A stretch of DNA of 64,000 nt from Candidatus Bathyarchaeota archaeon (GCA_963769425.1 CAVYLP010000003.1:29852-93851); one strand, 5' to 3'. Counted from the stretch's first letter, positions 6,205 to 23,492 are shown. Notes: a model not told the origin generated them from the sequence alone. Translations and numbers: made by a program.

Positions 6205-7203
6205 TTAAAAAAATCGCCTTTTAAGGAGCCTCAAATACACTGACTCTGCGAATTTACCCCGTATATTCTGTTTCCTAACGGTATAAAAAGCGGTAAGTTT
6301 CGGTCCAAATTTTGATTTATATGTGGCAATTCCTTCTTTGTTAGCGCCTACAAAATCTATTTTTAGGATGCCTTCCTGCTTACATTTTTTTATGTTTTCC
6401 CAAGTGAGCAACTCATTTACAGGTATTTTTCCTTCAGGTCTTACGCTTCCAAGCCAATCCATGTAAGTATCATTGTGCCATAGAACAACTTCAGATCCGA
6501 CTATATCCTCGCCATTTTTTACTAAGTGGATGCATATATTATCTGGAAATAGTGCCCTAAGTTCGTTTAAATAATCTTTACTATATAATGGAATTGTTAA
6601 TCCTTGTTCAATATATCTCTTTGAAATCATACCAAATACAAGATCACTTTTATCAGTTTCAACTATTTTTATATTCAATTCTTCCGCTTTTCTTATTTTA
6701 GAACGTTTCTTAATATTAATACCCTTCCAAATTGTATCTATATCGGAAGATAAGTCTAGGATATATGTATAGTTAACATTCACATCATATCCACCCCAAA
6801 TTAACTGTCTAGTATCAATAATATCAGGCATGAACGAAATAAATATGTAATCGGGGTTTAATTGTTCTAATGTTTTAGAGAAATCATCATAAATAATCTT
6901 GAGATATTCTTCCTGTTTCTCTTGGTTAAAATCATAAAATGTGTCTTTAAGGGCATATCCAAGATAGGGTATACTAGCTCTCGGCGGTGGTGAGAATAAC
7001 ATCTTAACGGAATATTGTTGTTTATAGAAAACAGGGAATAAGCAAAACAGTTCATCGGTCTTAAAAAAACCGTAGGTTAACAAATCGAATCCAGAGTATT
7101 TAGCCGTTGTTTTAAGAAAATCCCAACGATGAAATATTGTTGAGTGACTGCAATCCTTAATGAATTTATCCCAGACCTGCGGGTCATCAATTATTTTTAT
7201 CAA
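6205..7203 (-). CDS. FemAB-like acyltransferase, paralog of 4300..5295
   Basis: C-terminal ...GILKIDFVGANKEGIATYKSKFGPKL resembles the FemAB signature. Size is similar (332 aa). Confidence 0.55.
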   Translation of the reverse strand: MIKIIDDPQVWDKFIKDCSHSTIFHRWDFLKTTAKYSGFDLLTYGFFKTDELFCLFPVFYKQQYSVKMLFSPPPRASIPYLGYALKDTFYDFNQEKQEEYLKIIYDDFSKTLEQLNPDYIFISFMPDIIDTRQLIWGGYDVNVNYTYILDLSSDIDTIWKGINIKKRSKIRKAEELNIKIVETDKSDLVFGMISKRYIEQGLTIPLYSKDYLNELRALFPDNICIHLVKNGEDIVGSEVVLWHNDTYMDWLGSVRPEGKIPVNELLTWENIKKCKQEGILKIDFVGANKEGIATYKSKFGPKLTAFYTVRKQNIRGKFAESVYLRLLKRRFF

Positions 7204-18708: not shown

Positions 18709-18917
18709 AATTCATCAAGATACAGTTTTTCATCTTATCTATTTATAAAAAAAAATTCTAATGGAGAAACCACTGCTCGACAGCGAGGCGGGTGGTGTAG
18801 GAATGGAAATTGAACCAATTGTAATAGCCATATAACGGCTGTCCTTTTCACACATCTCTATTCGACTAATTAACTGATGCCCCCAAAACCTCGCATGCAG
18901 TTGAGAGCACGCACATA

Positions 18918-19951
18918 TTGGTTAGAAAATACGTAACTCCTATAATGGTAAAAATCACATCTGTGTCTGATAACACATTGGAAAAAGTAGGCGAACCTTC
19001 ATTAAAGCAATACTTGAACCAAATCATTGACTACGTAAAGACAAAAGAACAACCCAACAAACAAATTACCTCAAATAAACTCGTAGAAACACTCTTCGAC
19101 ACACTACTCTCACACGACTTCTGCTACCTAACGAGAACCCAAGTCGTACCCTACACATCGCAGATAATCGACGCATTCCAATCCGCAACACAGAAAAACA
19201 AACCACTACCCATGTACCTTGACCTCGGGCCCGGATACCACGCAGCCCTTGAAAAAAGCGACCCAAGACGCCTCTCCTTCGAGGTAGACCTAGGAGAACT
19301 CCTAGTTCTATATCAGATGAGAAAATTCATCAATAGAGTAAATAAAATCTATCCACCCGGGGCTGAGTTCAACATTATAATTGACAACGTGTGCGCTGTC
19401 TACGTAAACGACATCAACACTAAGGAAACGGAGCACTACTGCAGCCGATTCAGGGAACTAATAAGAGAGATGAATATGGAGGACCATGTAAAACTCCTCG
19501 TCGAATCGGAGCACTTCAACGTATCAGACTATGATGTTAAACCAATCCCCGAAGATGAAATAAAATCCTACGAACTCACAAAAGATGAACATGAAAACGT
19601 CGAACGATTCATTGGGCGCGCCTGCTCCAAAGAAGAGGCAATTAGGAGAATACTAACATACAAACAGATAGGAGACAGAACAGATGAGTTATTCTACAGC
19701 TTTTTCCAACACGGAGTACACATGACACAGAGAGCCTCAAAGCACAACGATAAGCTTCAGACCATTCCCAGGAGGCGACTCTAGGATACAGAGCCGGAAA
19801 AGTCGTCCTCGGCATCAACAACAGAAACAAAGTGTATCCCTTCCTGTTAACCAGCACCAACTACGAAAAATTCGTATATGAGAGCTTCACCTTCCCGGAG
19901 ATTCAACCGAAGGCAATTCGAGAAATAACGTTCGCTCACCCATCATAAATA
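18918..19951 (+). pseudogene. Hypothetical protein with tentative similarity to the DIT1/PvcA (isonitrile synthase) family. The C-terminus continues in another frame.
   Basis: The main ORF ends at TAG 19782-19784. The adjacent frame continues as GYRAGKVVLGINNRNKVYPFLLTSTNYEKFVYESFTFPEIQPKAIREITFAHPS. The segment IYPPGAEFNIIIDNVCAVYVNDI recalls the PvcA/IsnA core from memory only. Confidence 0.35.
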
Positions 19952-20169
19952 TCCAATTAACAAGCGTTCAATCCTACTAAAGGATCGAAGGTCAGCCAAA
20001 CGTAATTAATTCAATGGATTAGGCTTCATTCCAGCATTTCGAAAACAGGAACTAGCCGTCAAAGCAACCATAAAAACATCATACCTGCCACCTTGACGCT
20101 GCTAAAAAAGTCCAGACCCTCATGATTCACACCAATAATGAAGATTTCAGTTAATTATTAAAAATATAA

Positions 20170-20279
20170 TTGGTGCCGGGAATGGGAATTGAACCCATGG
20201 TCTCTATCCGGCTAAGGCACTGGTGCCTATAACCTCTGGATCATGAGTCCAGCGCATTAGCCAAGCTATGCTACCCCGG
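20170..20279 (-). tRNA. tRNA-Met/Ile2 (anticodon CAT) with an approximately 31-nt intron at a non-canonical position (variable-loop / T-arm junction). CCA is genome-encoded.
   Basis: Minus-strand read GCCGGGG-TA-GCAT-AGCTTGGCTA-ATGC-G-CTGGA-CTCATGA-TCCAG-[AGGTT...GAGACC insert]-ATGGG-TTCAATT-CCCAT-TCCCGGC-A-CCA. The acceptor, D, anticodon and T stems all pair. The extra 31 nt contains a GGCAC-CA-GTGCC hairpin. Confidence 0.6.
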
Positions 20280-20319
20280 CCCTTCTGACCCATACACACT
20301 GCACAAATTTAAATCCTGA

Positions 20320-21516
20320 TCATCGCTCAACGAGCCTAGGTTCACTAAGGGCGATAGGTCTTCCCTTCTCAAAATACACCCTTGGTAACAGTGGATGCAA
20401 CCCAACCATGAGGGAATACGTCATAATTCCGGCTAGTTCAGCCACGTTATGCGCGTTATTCACACCACCACGCCCTATGGCTTCTACTACCCCACCCACG
20501 TCGACGTCTGTCCCATCAAGATCGACTAGGAAGTGATTGACAGATACCGTCCCTAGTACATGTTTGATCCTCCCATCCACCATGACTAGGCCTTTCTTCG
20601 TCAAGCCCCTCGGGTAGCCGTCGGAGTACCCGATATGAACTGTCCCCACCTTCATCCTCTTAGAAGCCGTGAATCTCCTAGAATAGGTGAGGGACTCTCC
20701 AGACTCAACCCACTTGACCTGTTCGACTCGAGCTTTGAGGGAAATTGCCAACTTTAGGTCCAAACCGCTCTCCCGATCCTCAGGGTCGGGATAGAACCCG
20801 TAGAGCATTAAGCCCGGCCGAACAGCGTCCAAAAACGTGAAGGGTCTGTGGAAGACCGCGTTTCCACTTGCCATGCTGCGGACCCCATACCTAATCCCCA
20901 ATCGATCCAACTCTGCGCTGACATCCTTCATTCTATCAACCTGAATCCGATCAAGTTCCGCATCCTCCGACATGGTCGAGAAAATACCGGTTATCTCAAG
21001 GTGCGTAAGAGACGAAATATACTGAACGAGATCAACGGCTTCGCTCCACCTTACACCAACTCTACCGAGTCCTGTGTCGATCTTAACCCGAGTCTCAGCC
21101 TTCTTCCCGACTTTTTGGGCTGCGGATTCTAGTCTCTCCGCCGTTTTCTTCTGGTAAATCGTCTGCGTGATTTCTTTTGTGACAACCAATTCATAATGCT
21201 CATCTGAGAAGAGGGGATCCATGCTGATCACACCACAATCAAGGTGAGAGTCCCTGATCTGCTCGGCCTCCCAAAGCTTTGCTACGAGGTACTGCTTGAT
21301 GCCCATCCTCATCATATGCGCAACTACTGGTACCAACCCATGGCCGTAGGCATTCGTTTTAACACAGGGGATCACTTCGACTTGGACCTTTTTCTTAACT
21401 TCTTCAAGGTTGTATGTGATAGCGTCGAGGTCGATCTCGAGCCAAGAGGGAAAGCCCTGGATACGTTTCTCTATCTCTTCAGAGGAAAGCTGCCTAGCGA
21501 AATAGGCTTCAGCCAA
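20320..21516 (-). CDS. alr: Alanine racemase (PLP-dependent)
   Basis: VKTNAYGHG pyridoxal-phosphate attachment motif near the N-terminus. Length and C-terminal beta-domain are consistent. Confidence 0.8.
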   Translation of the reverse strand: MAEAYFARQLSSEEIEKRIQGFPSWLEIDLDAITYNLEEVKKKVQVEVIPCVKTNAYGHGLVPVVAHMMRMGIKQYLVAKLWEAEQIRDSHLDCGVISMDPLFSDEHYELVVTKEITQTIYQKKTAERLESAAQKVGKKAETRVKIDTGLGRVGVRWSEAVDLVQYISSLTHLEITGIFSTMSEDAELDRIQVDRMKDVSAELDRLGIRYGVRSMASGNAVFHRPFTFLDAVRPGLMLYGFYPDPEDRESGLDLKLAISLKARVEQVKWVESGESLTYSRRFTASKRMKVGTVHIGYSDGYPRGLTKKGLVMVDGRIKHVLGTVSVNHFLVDLDGTDVDVGGVVEAIGRGGVNNAHNVAELAGIMTYSLMVGLHPLLPRVYFEKGRPIALSEPRLVER

Positions 21517-22218: not shown

Positions 22219-23492
22219 GCGCGCTGCCTTGTCCCGAAATTAACGGCCAAACACCAATCCCTCGAGCAAGGAGACATAAAATCAACTCACAAAAACCACT
22301 AAGCCACATCAACCCCTCCGAAGCCCACAAAACACCCACAACAGACTACACCCCCAGAACCCCAAACCCACTACCCACTAGCCACCCCCACCAGAAACCC
22401 CTCAGACGAGACCCTCACACGTTGAAGAACGTAGGCGAAACAGCCTTCTCAGGCCGACCCAGACACTCAGCCGCCTCACGAACCAGCACGACACAGAGCA
22501 GGCTCAGCAACGCATACACCGAAACGCATCCCAGCCTCCTCACATTGTTCACGGTCAAACCGTACTGGGTCTTCAGCCAGCTGAACACCGACTCCACCAG
22601 CGGACGCTTATGGTACTCGGCCACGAGCCCAGGTGGACCGTGAGTCCTGAACCTACGATCAACCCTCAGAATCCCCTCACCTCTCTGGTTAGCAGTATAC
22701 GGAATCACCGAATCAGAGACGAGACCCCTCACCGCCGAGCTACTGTACTGGCTGTCCGCCACCAGGCTCCTCACCAACCCGCCGGCCCTAACCAGCACCG
22801 CCCTGGCCTTCTCAACCAAGCCTGGAGCGTGCTTCTTCTCGTTGTCGTTAGCGGGAGCCAGCAGAGTGGCTAAGGGAAGCATCGTTTTGTGGTCCACCGC
22901 GACGTGGAGTTTGTAGCCGAGGTCGTAGCCCCTGCCGTTCCTGCCCACTAGGGCGTCTGGGTCAGAGTACGCGACCCTGCTGTTATCCGGGTGCCTGATG
23001 CTCCGTGCCTTGATGAAGCTCGCATCCAGGAGCACATCGACCTCAGGGGCTCTGAATCTGAGGAGTTTGACCACCTTCTCCTCGAGGATGAGCTGGAGGA
23101 CGTCGGATCCGACCCGCTTCGTGAATCTGCTGATGACGGATCTGGGGTAGCCTCTCTGTTTCCCGTATATGAGGCAGAGCCGTCTGAGTCGCCGGTCGAC
23201 GTCGAGGATCCGGGTGAGCTCGCGGAGGCTTCGGATGCCTTTCAGCCTCATTATGAGGAGGGCTCTTAGGATTCCGAGTGGGTTTCTGGGTGGTCTGCCG
23301 GCTCCGGTTGTGTGGTAGCAGCCGATGAGTTGTTTTTGGGCAATGCTTAAGTCGACGTTTCTGAAGAGTGTTTCAAGGGTCTCGTGTTCGTCCTGTCCTA
23401 ACGGACTCGACCTCCTCTGGTTCCCGCCATGGGTGACGAGACCCTAACTTTCAAGATAAACTTGTCTCGAATTTAGGGACAAGGCAGCGCGC
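22219..23492 (-). mobile_element. IS4/IS5-family insertion sequence (about 1.27 kb) with 22-bp imperfect terminal inverted repeats
   Basis: Left end gcgcgctgccttgtcccgaaat (22219-22240). The reverse complement of the right end atttagggacaaggcagcgcgc (23471-23492) is gcgcgctgccttgtccctaaat, matching 20 of 22 positions. The DDE transposase ORF lies inside. A CA-rich 3' segment (22300-22400) resembles copy 2 at 46000-46100. Confidence 0.7.
22415..23251 (-). CDS. DDE transposase, IS4/IS5 family (278 aa from ATG; the frame stays open about 190 nt further upstream without a start codon)
   Basis: Segments DASFIKA, HVAVD, VADSQYSS and ESVFSWLK (DDE, with the E in the xxxFxWxK-like region). Confidence 0.7.
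   Translation of the reverse strand: MRLKGIRSLRELTRILDVDRRLRRLCLIYGKQRGYPRSVISRFTKRVGSDVLQLILEEKVVKLLRFRAPEVDVLLDASFIKARSIRHPDNSRVAYSDPDALVGRNGRGYDLGYKLHVAVDHKTMLPLATLLAPANDNEKKHAPGLVEKARAVLVRAGGLVRSLVADSQYSSSAVRGLVSDSVIPYTANQRGEGILRVDRRFRTHGPPGLVAEYHKRPLVESVFSWLKTQYGLTVNNVRRLGCVSVYALLSLLCVVLVREAAECLGRPEKAVSPTFFNV

Follow-up and report, generated by a model that had tools for sequence, protein, structure and literature searches.

The 64,000-nt stretch of DNA from Candidatus Bathyarchaeota archaeon (GCA_963769425.1, CAVYLP010000003.1:29852-93851), referred to below as the window, contains a tRNA gene with the anticodon CAU whose anticodon and T stems lie 37 nt apart, compared with 5 nt in a class I tRNA. 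The question that this locus raises is whether the extra nucleotides are removed from the transcript, are kept in the mature tRNA or mark a damaged gene copy. The analysis makes it very probable that the locus is an expressed elongator-type tRNA-CAU gene with one 32-nt intron at Sprinzl position 43/44, where the anticodon stem borders on the variable loop. The tRNA gene is confirmed and its interpretation as an intron-containing gene is supported; the feature belongs to a known type, was found in an under-described lineage and has a few unexplained details. In the text below, "nt" followed by a number denotes an RNA position read 5'→3' from window position 20280 on the minus strand, and symbols such as A46 follow this count. 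Sprinzl numbering is used for the 37/38 and 43/44 sites, for U33, C34, U36, position 37 (A37, G37), C48 and A73, and for the acceptor pairs.

Identification of the tRNA gene

An Rfam scan revealed a match to the family RF00005 on the minus strand at positions 20174–20280 (55.5 bits, E = 3e-9), which covered the whole model (1–71); no other RNA family was found above the threshold in the window. The covariance model placed an insertion of about 33 nt between the anticodon stem and the T stem, where the initial annotation, made from the sequence alone, had also located it. That annotation had correctly recognized a tRNA at 20170–20279, but its strand and coordinates had to be corrected: the first G (20280) was missed, while the CCA end and one more base were included. 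A real tRNA gene is present on the minus strand, and its pre-tRNA body, from the 5' exon through the intron and the 3' exon to the discriminator A73, comprises 107 nt. The CCA end is encoded at 20171–20173, as it is in only part of the homologues.

Read 5'→3', the pre-tRNA consists of the 5' exon GCCGGGGUAGCAUAGCUUGGCUAAUGCGCUGGACUCAUGAUCCAG, the predicted intron AGGUUAUAGGCACCAGUGCCUUAGCCGGAUAG and the 3' exon AGACCAUGGGUUCAAUUCCCAUUCCCGGCA, followed by CCA. The 5' exon (nt 1–45; 20236–20280) includes the 5' strand of the acceptor stem, the D arm and the full anticodon arm CUGGA-CUCAUGA-UCCAG. The 7-nt anticodon loop CUCAUGA contains U33 and the anticodon CAU (nt 36–38; 20243–20245), which is supported by Rfam, by ARAGORN and by the sequence itself. 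The 3' exon (nt 78–107; 20174–20203) contains the variable loop AGACC, the T arm AUGGG-UUCAAUU-CCCAU, the 3' strand of the acceptor stem UCCCGGC and A73. The stems are formed by nt 1–7/100–106 (acceptor), nt 10–13/24–27 (D), nt 29–33/41–45 (anticodon) and nt 83–87/95–99 (T).

ARAGORN did not report a tRNA in the window, which was expected because off-position introns are outside its model. After in silico removal of nt 46–77, the same tool identified a tRNA-Met(cat) of canonical form whose variable loop has 5 nt, so that removal at the predicted bonds restored the canonical cloverleaf. The predicted spliced product is a 75-nt class I tRNA plus CCA. The earlier claim that all four stems pair once the insert is taken out therefore held, although the insert comprises 32 nt and not 31.

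Predicted intron and splice motif

In order to locate the intron, all pairs of 5' and 3' cuts leaving a variable loop of 4 or 5 nt were scanned. The cuts 45/46 and 77/78 were the unique optimum, with four of four pairs in the exon–intron helix H, a 3-nt bulge, a 5-bp inner helix h' and a 5-nt variable loop; the alternative cut pairs gave at most two of the four H pairs. The intron predicted in this way occupies nt 46–77 (20204–20235) and follows the last base of the anticodon stem, which agrees with the initial annotation in placing it outside the 37/38 site. Helix H is formed by A40 U41 C42 C43 of the exon (Sprinzl 38–41; 20238–20241) and G72 G73 A74 U75 of the intron (20206–20209), all four pairs of AUCC/GGAU being Watson–Crick. 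Next to it lies the bulge A44 G45 A46 (20235–20237) in which the 5' cut is predicted to fall between 20236 and 20235, and then the intronic hairpin (20210–20234). The h' stem of this hairpin, GGUUA/UAGCC (nt 47–51/67–71; 20230–20234/20210–20214), has 5 bp in the window, opens with two invariant G–C pairs and surrounds an apical element. When the intron was shuffled 20,000 times, a 4-bp Watson–Crick helix with a 3-nt bulge, an inner helix of at least 5 bp and a 4–5-nt variable loop appeared in 5 shuffles, and the minimal published motif criteria were reached in 158.

Archaeal splice motifs are described as hBHBh' (strict bulge-helix-bulge, BHB) and HBh' (relaxed) (PMC7714728, PMC4090602). The junction studied here has the composition of the relaxed form, namely a 4-bp exon–intron helix H and a 3-nt bulge closed by h', for which at least two Watson–Crick pairs are required. 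A BHB-like fold made of H, the AGA bulge and the 5-bp h' was thus found at the junction, as the initial annotation had anticipated, and its view that an endonuclease of relaxed specificity is needed agrees with an HBh' rather than a strict hBHBh' motif (PMC7714728, PMC4090602, PMC4033280). The same annotation had drawn attention to a GGCAC/GUGCC hairpin in the insert. These complementary strands are present (nt 54–58/61–65), but they do not form the splice-defining helix. A loop of 2 nt is sterically impossible, and in relatives only GGC/GCC persists as a conserved stem. It is the outer hairpin, GGUUA/UAGCC, that matters structurally.

In a canonical archaeal intron, the 4-bp central helix takes in the first two bases of the anticodon, and the 5' site is at 37/38 (PMC4090602). 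From this case the rule was derived that each 3-nt bulge is cleaved behind its second nucleotide. Based on this rule, the following pathway can be proposed. Transcription would start from a TATA promoter located about 30 nt upstream. AUCC, the 3' strand of the anticodon stem, would exchange its mature partner in the pre-tRNA for GGAU at the 3' end of the intron and form the 4-bp helix H, which together with the AGA bulge and the hairpin h' would make up the relaxed motif. The splicing endonuclease would cut after the second nucleotide of the bulge, between G45 and A46, and symmetrically two nucleotides past H on the opposite strand, between G77 and A78. An RNA ligase would then join the exons into ...UCCAG-AGACC-AUGGG..., giving the 75-nt tRNA with its CCA end. 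The cleavage, its exact bonds, the type of the endonuclease and the ligation are all predicted. Since the dinucleotide repeat AG/AG is present at both junctions, an intron at Sprinzl 44/45 or 45/46 would lead to an identical mature sequence, and the mature sequence is more certain than the exact bonds, which may be shifted by 1–2 bases. By analogy, the host may possess a broad-specificity endonuclease of the (αβ)2 or ε2 type, equipped with a specific loop: relaxed motifs are tied to such enzymes of TACK archaea (PMC7714728, PMC4090602, PMC4033280), and the (αβ)2 endonuclease is found mainly in TACK, including Bathyarchaeota (PMC7714728).

Conservation of the interrupted gene

A one-genome-per-species collection was searched with a pattern that fixed the anticodon arm as well as the T loop and required at least 12 extra nucleotides. 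The same interrupted gene was found at 53 genome loci, about 50 of which are labelled Bathyarchaeota or Bathyarchaeia. The suggestion that such an intron is phylogenetically informative is consistent with this recovery almost exclusively from Bathyarchaeia. Each of the 53 loci gave an Rfam tRNA match of 53–61 bits without a second tRNA, and ARAGORN called no tRNA on any of them. The 51 complete copies represent 29 distinct sequences, and the gene of the window is identical to those of three loci (L019, L036 and L046).

It was revealed that the exons are nearly invariant among the 29 variants, the 5' exon being almost unchanged. The ends of the intron (AGG.../...CCGGAUA) are invariant as well, and GGAU with the flanking CC and A is unchanged inside an intron whose h' stem varies. 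For the isolated segment nt 39–75, the local minimum free energy (MFE) structure was H, the 3-nt bulge and h' in all 29 variants, with the bulge nucleotides unpaired in each case. In an alignment built with a covariance model of the proposed structure, on which the pair counts consequently lean, standard pairs occupied 97.4% of cells, compared with 33–52% when the partners were slid by 1–3 columns. Three pairs of h' were changed on both sides (20 cells) in a compensatory manner. The covariation score was 0.143 against a shuffle mean of 0.083; none of 500 shuffles reached this score, and the slid controls did not exceed 0.062. In the acceptor stem, the pair 3–70 also switched compensatorily (CG in 21 variants, UA in 8).

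An intron-less allele with the same anticodon arm was then sought in a metagenome contig collection, and no match was found; a viral contig collection likewise gave no matches for the gene or for the junction of the intron and the 3' exon. A looser pattern of the D arm and T arm recovered only an unrelated intron-less tRNA-Ala(UGC). This uninterrupted tRNA with G3–U70 (L054, 461–518; L055, 2563–2620; L056, 1450–1507; all on the minus strand) shares its D arm with the CAU tRNA and has a variable loop and a T arm of the type seen there. The sequence of these two parts, AGAUC-GUGGGUUCAAAUCCCAC, is also what splicing of the CAU tRNA is predicted to yield in some relatives, and for this reason the predicted junction corresponds to a normal tRNA configuration.

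An archaeal TATA box, TTTAAAT, was found at 20307–20313 on the minus strand, 27–33 nt upstream of the mature 5' end. In 38 of 42 distinct loci, a TATA-like motif, mostly the heptamer TTTAAAT, lies equally far upstream. A run of five T residues (20160–20164, minus strand), located 7 nt downstream of CCA, is likely the transcription stop, judging by its sequence; a run of at least four T residues is present within 30 nt downstream in 22 of the 42 loci.

Some loci of this set had peculiarities. Three Bathyarchaeia-type genes (L007, L027 and L053; DATLAV010000141, DATKWN010000034 and DATKWY010000178) came from bacterial metagenome-assembled genomes (MAGs) of one project, labelled Patescibacteria, Krumholzibacteriaceae and Desulfaltia; these contigs are probably mis-binned. 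Locus L047 carries two identical full copies on the minus strand (327–433 and 2084–2190), 1757 bp apart and with a degenerate copy between them, and the conserved TATA box is present at only one of the two.

Alternative folds and points against the intron

In addition to the lean of the pair counts on the fitted alignment, several observations weigh against the splicing of this pre-tRNA as proposed. The strict hBHBh' motif is absent: with a second bulge of 3 nt, A76 R77 A78, the next pair would be G39/G79, so that no outer helix can form (h = 0). Constrained folding revealed a 10-bp exonic helix between UGGACUCAUG (nt 30–39) and CAUGGGUUCA (nt 82–91), but for it to serve as the outer helix the bulge would have to comprise 6 nt and the T arm would have to unfold, which makes this a mere possibility suggested by the folding model. 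All four H pairs are invariant in the 29 variants and give no covariation support; since H never varies, the argument for it comes from complementarity and invariance. The splicing-competent fold was never the MFE structure of the whole molecule. Averaged over the 29 variants, the MFE was −45.8 kcal/mol; folds that retain the anticodon stem reached −44.8 kcal/mol at best, and folds with H, the bulge and h' reached −43.9 kcal/mol, so that the latter lie 1.9 kcal/mol above the MFE and 0.9 kcal/mol above the folds that keep the anticodon stem; these gaps are within the error of the energy model. According to the modeled folds, the enzyme would have to capture a conformer with an open anticodon stem, which is usual for off-position introns. 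Finally, t6A-type modifications of A37 are found throughout the tRNAs with U36 (PMC8879553), and the base following the anticodon here is G37 (nt 39; 20242), which is atypical for either Met or Ile2.

Other structures were considered and rejected. The MFE structure of the whole molecule in the window (nt 19–24/66–71, 26–32/58–64 and 37–42/47–52) is not a conserved one, as its outer helix is lost in relatives; it also puts the splice sites into non-BHB contexts and leaves the compensatory changes in h' unexplained. Constrained folding also suggested a helix of nt 34–36/77–79, but about half of the variants have A77, which disrupts it. Inspection of the sequence for a second UCCAG-like strand, which would permit a canonical 37/38 intron or remove G37, revealed none.

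Identity of the tRNA

Archaeal initiator tRNA-Met has A1–U72 and three consecutive G–C pairs at the bottom of the anticodon stem. The tRNA of the window has G1–C72 and the anticodon stem CUGGA/UCCAG, and by its sequence it is clearly not an initiator. The acceptor stem GCCGGGG presumably resembles those of archaeal elongator Met tRNAs rather than Ile tRNAs. Elongator tRNA-Met is slightly favoured as the identity of this tRNA.

The second candidate, which the initial annotation had already raised, is tRNA-Ile2, in which C34 would be converted to agmatidine and the codon AUA would be read; this assignment appears somewhat less probable. Archaea normally need three CAU genes (initiator, Met and Ile2) that are inseparable by the anticodon alone (PMC8450103), and with the initiator excluded by sequence, Ile2 has to be considered next to Met. 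G37 argues against Ile2, because it excludes t6A37, an identity element of the bacterial-type isoleucyl-tRNA synthetase IleRS (PMC9976931), but the same modification would be expected just as much in tRNA-Met. G37 is shared by all recovered homologues, but the search pattern demanded it. In the pre-tRNA, this base could pair with C48 within the 10-bp exon–exon helix. A literature search on the determinants of TiaS and Ile2 and on G37 in archaeal tRNA-Met gave nothing decisive.

Apical motif of the intron

The apical motif, GGCACCAGUGCC in the window (nt 54–65; 20216–20227), contains the GGCAC/GUGCC hairpin mentioned above. As GGCACCAGYGCC it is near-invariant in 28 of the 29 variants, that is, as conserved as the exons, next to a stem that varies. 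The core of the motif, CCAGYGC (nt 58–64), is complementary to the exon sequence GCGCUGG (nt 26–32; 20249–20255), with seven of seven pairs in 24 variants. The MFE structure uses this pairing in the window, where the RNA has a z-score of −3.2 against shuffles, and in 10 of 29 homologues. The only frequent variation of the motif is U/C at nt 62, which keeps the pair with G28 and makes or breaks the hairpin pair with A57.

These features raise the possibility that the spliced intron has an additional function in cis, which is compatible with its being an intron. CCAGYGC would pair with GCGCUGG, i.e., with the end of the D stem and the 5' strand of the anticodon stem, and this alternative conformer would gate or time splicing or would free the 3' strand of the anticodon stem for H. 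The exon-like conservation beside the variable stem, the frequency of full complementarity, the use of the helix in predicted folds and the behavior of nt 62 all point in this direction. On the other hand, the invariant exon partner permits no covariation test, and the outer extension of the window fold (nt 19–24/66–71) is not conserved. The pairing also crosses h', and no more than two nucleotides, C65 and U66, would be available to bridge a 7-bp helix, so the coexistence of the two was judged impossible on steric grounds. In addition, locus L033 keeps the gene with a wholly different apical sequence, and the conservation could instead be due to protein binding. A cis function of this kind is therefore regarded as unlikely. 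No greater credit is given to a further extension of this idea, in which GGCACCAGYGCC acts as a cis-antisense element against GCGCUGG and, together with G37 and the 10-bp exon–exon helix, forms a three-state switch controlling the maturation of the CAU tRNA; according to the folding models, its states would be cloverleaf-like, antisense-locked and splicing-competent.

Possible retention of the insert

Another explanation is that the insert is not removed and that the gene encodes a class II-like tRNA-CAU whose extra-long variable arm consists of the h' hairpin and an 11-nt tail. The MFE structure of the whole molecule does keep the anticodon stem and an h' arm between the anticodon and T arms in 15 of 29 homologues, and nematode nev-tRNAs join class I anticodons to long variable arms (PMC4033280). 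However, the region, 37 nt long and with an 11-nt tail after the hairpin in a tRNA with the anticodon CAU, does not have the composition of a class II arm. Known variable arms comprise about 10–24 nt, form one stem-loop and occur in Leu, Ser, (Tyr) and Sec tRNAs, and the 37 nt of the studied tRNA are far above this range. Its invariant tail GGAUA matches the 3' strand of the anticodon stem with a 3-nt bulge, a feature needless for a variable arm, and the rule-based cuts leave exactly 5 nt. The host also belongs to the TACK lineage, where such introns are common (PMC7714728, PMC8450103). Retention of the insert is thus very improbable, and an intron at 43/44 is preferred.

Genomic context and probable traces of integration

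The alanine racemase gene (20320–21516, minus strand) ends 40 nt upstream of the tRNA, and this linkage is conserved across the class; the racemase gene is 78–81% identical to those of L019 and L046, which assigns the window to a Bathyarchaeia genome. Comparison of the window with nearly all related loci showed that the shared homology comprises alanine racemase and the tRNA and ends exactly at the 3' end of the latter (20170–20173). On the downstream side, no homology is shared even among close relatives, and 106 open reading frames (ORFs) located within 6 kb downstream across the loci fell into 83 unrelated clusters.

Partial direct copies of the tRNA gene, degenerate and including the intron and the 3' exon, sometimes from the D loop on, were found downstream of the full gene in six loci using the covariance model R1 (25–88 bits). 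They are located at 6423–6516 in L007, 694–796 and 7658–7765 in L023, 430–545 and 4854–4961 in L043, 6408–6502 in L044 and 1723–1841 in L047, and L012 carries six copies on the minus strand. These copies separate small groups of accessory genes (heliorhodopsin, MsrA, cupins, GNAT, ABC transporter, beta-lactamase-family esterase), and by their sequence they look like remnants of attachment (att) sites that include the intron in a cassette-like layout. The copies in L012 and L043 were also considered as split or doubly interrupted genes, which was rejected given the full gene upstream in L043 and the serial degenerate copies. In L028, an ORF of 158 aa lies 195–671 nt downstream of the tRNA on the opposite strand; it matched Phage_integrase (PF00589) just at the threshold (27.4 bits, E = 3.4e-6) and is probably a decayed tyrosine recombinase. 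Otherwise, Pfam and NCBIfam scans of about 40 downstream ORFs revealed cargo-type genes and no integrases.

In the window itself, a degenerate direct repeat of 27 nt extending from the T arm to CCA (GGTTCAATTTCCATTCC..CACCA; 18800–18826, minus strand) was found 1.35 kb downstream of the tRNA (BLASTN, 16/17 identities, E = 0.079). It is a possible old att remnant, weak when taken alone and supported by the clearer remnants in related loci. The repeat and the tRNA gene bracket one ORF (18918–19784) with a weak match to DIT1_PvcA. The GC content drops from about 0.5–0.6 upstream of the tRNA to 0.25–0.43 downstream of it; along the window there is a strong step, with 0.25–0.32 at 1–8 kb, about 0.4 at 8–20 kb and 0.47–0.62 beyond the tRNA. 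Surface-polymer genes lie in the low-GC part; they encode a glycosyltransferase, FemAB/GNAT-like proteins and a polysaccharide deacetylase, and TatA/TatC come after them. An insertion sequence-type DDE transposase gene (PF01609, DDE_Tnp_1; 22415–23251, minus strand) is located 2 kb upstream of the tRNA.

Most simply, these sequences can be read as an integration site that has been in use for a long time and has the intron within its att repeats. More remotely, the intron-bearing 3' part of the gene may be the recombination site of a cassette-like accessory region, which in every one of the Bathyarchaeia examined begins exactly where the tRNA ends. The idea that the gene is a decaying, non-functional copy and the insert a scar of mobile-element integration would fit the synteny breakpoint at its 3' end, the degenerate copies downstream in several relatives, the integrase fragment in L028 and the weak T-arm repeat in the window, but it is hardly credible in view of the near-invariant exons, the compensatory acceptor pair 3–70, the intron structure maintained through double changes, the conserved TATA box and the true remnants, which lack the 5' part, score 25–88 bits against 102–134 for full genes and themselves carry the intron, so that the intron predates the integrations.

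Significance and comparison with known systems

The CAU tRNA, apparently present as a single orthologous copy beside alr in Bathyarchaeia, is missed by finders that have no mode for non-canonical introns. Because finders miss this gene, tRNA complements and MAG quality scores are underestimated when archaeal intron models are not used, and this annotation gap concerns an abundant lineage of sediment and soil. tRNAscan-SE 2.0 seeks off-position introns by default, 673 of them having been found in 217 archaeal genomes (PMC8450103). The motif described here predicts a broad-specificity splicing endonuclease in Bathyarchaeia and offers a conserved natural HBh' substrate for enzyme testing, with the 3' site in an open region of 6–7 nt. 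The orthologous off-position intron can also be used as a lineage marker. The intron-bearing att-like remnants bear on the old idea that interruption shields tRNA genes from integration; in this case the intron was evidently no shield.

In the literature collection searched, no paper on tRNA introns of Bathyarchaeia was found. Introns outside 37/38 with relaxed HBh' or hBH motifs are well established in Thermoproteales, other Crenarchaeota and Thaumarchaeota and were reportedly described by Marck and Grosjean in 2003 and by Sugahara in 2008. Like these non-canonical introns, the one studied here is short, lies outside the anticodon loop in a TACK host and combines a 4-bp exon–intron helix, a 3-nt bulge and an intronic helix, for which the mature structure is partly unfolded. 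It differs in its Bathyarchaeia host, in its position at the boundary of the anticodon stem and the variable loop and in an apical motif conserved like the exons. In addition, one orthologue is kept across more than 50 species-level genomes, in contrast to the rapid gain and loss described for Thermoproteales. With the canonical hBHBh' intron at 37/38 it shares the central 4-bp helix, the 3-nt bulge and the predicted cut two nucleotides into the bulge, and in both cases the excised product is expected to be ligated, with the intron possibly circularized. The difference lies in the position and in the absence of a second 3-nt bulge closed by an exonic helix, and the Bathyarchaeia motif would not suit the strict α4 and α'2 enzymes (PMC7714728, PMC4090602).

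Like the arms of class II tRNAs (Leu, Ser, bacterial Tyr) and of nev-tRNAs, the insert forms a stem-loop between the anticodon and T arms; unlike them, the region is 37 nt long, ends in a 3' tail of 11 nt that can pair with the anticodon stem, belongs to a CAU tRNA and leaves 5 nt after clean removal. Another system for comparison is the intron of pre-tRNA-Trp of Haloferax volcanii, which is a box C/D guide that can pair with the exons of the same tRNA. A conserved stretch of the intron is complementary to its own exon in both cases. However, no C/D boxes or K-turn features were found on inspection of the intron studied here, its 32 nt are too short for a C/D ribonucleoprotein, and the target would be positions 24–30 of the D stem and anticodon stem.

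Archaeal integrative elements that target tRNA genes leave direct repeats of the 3' part of the tRNA (PMC4033280). The hypervariable region starting at the tRNA 3' end, the partial copies downstream and the tyrosine-recombinase fragment in one relative are similar to the traces of such elements. Here, however, the intron is part of the repeats, most of the inspected loci have no integrase, and the window retains a weak 27-nt remnant only. Thus, the off-position archaeal intron is a type already known, and its class-wide occurrence in Bathyarchaeia is newly documented; its distinctive features are the class-wide orthologous conservation, the boundary position, the exon-complementary apical motif and G37.

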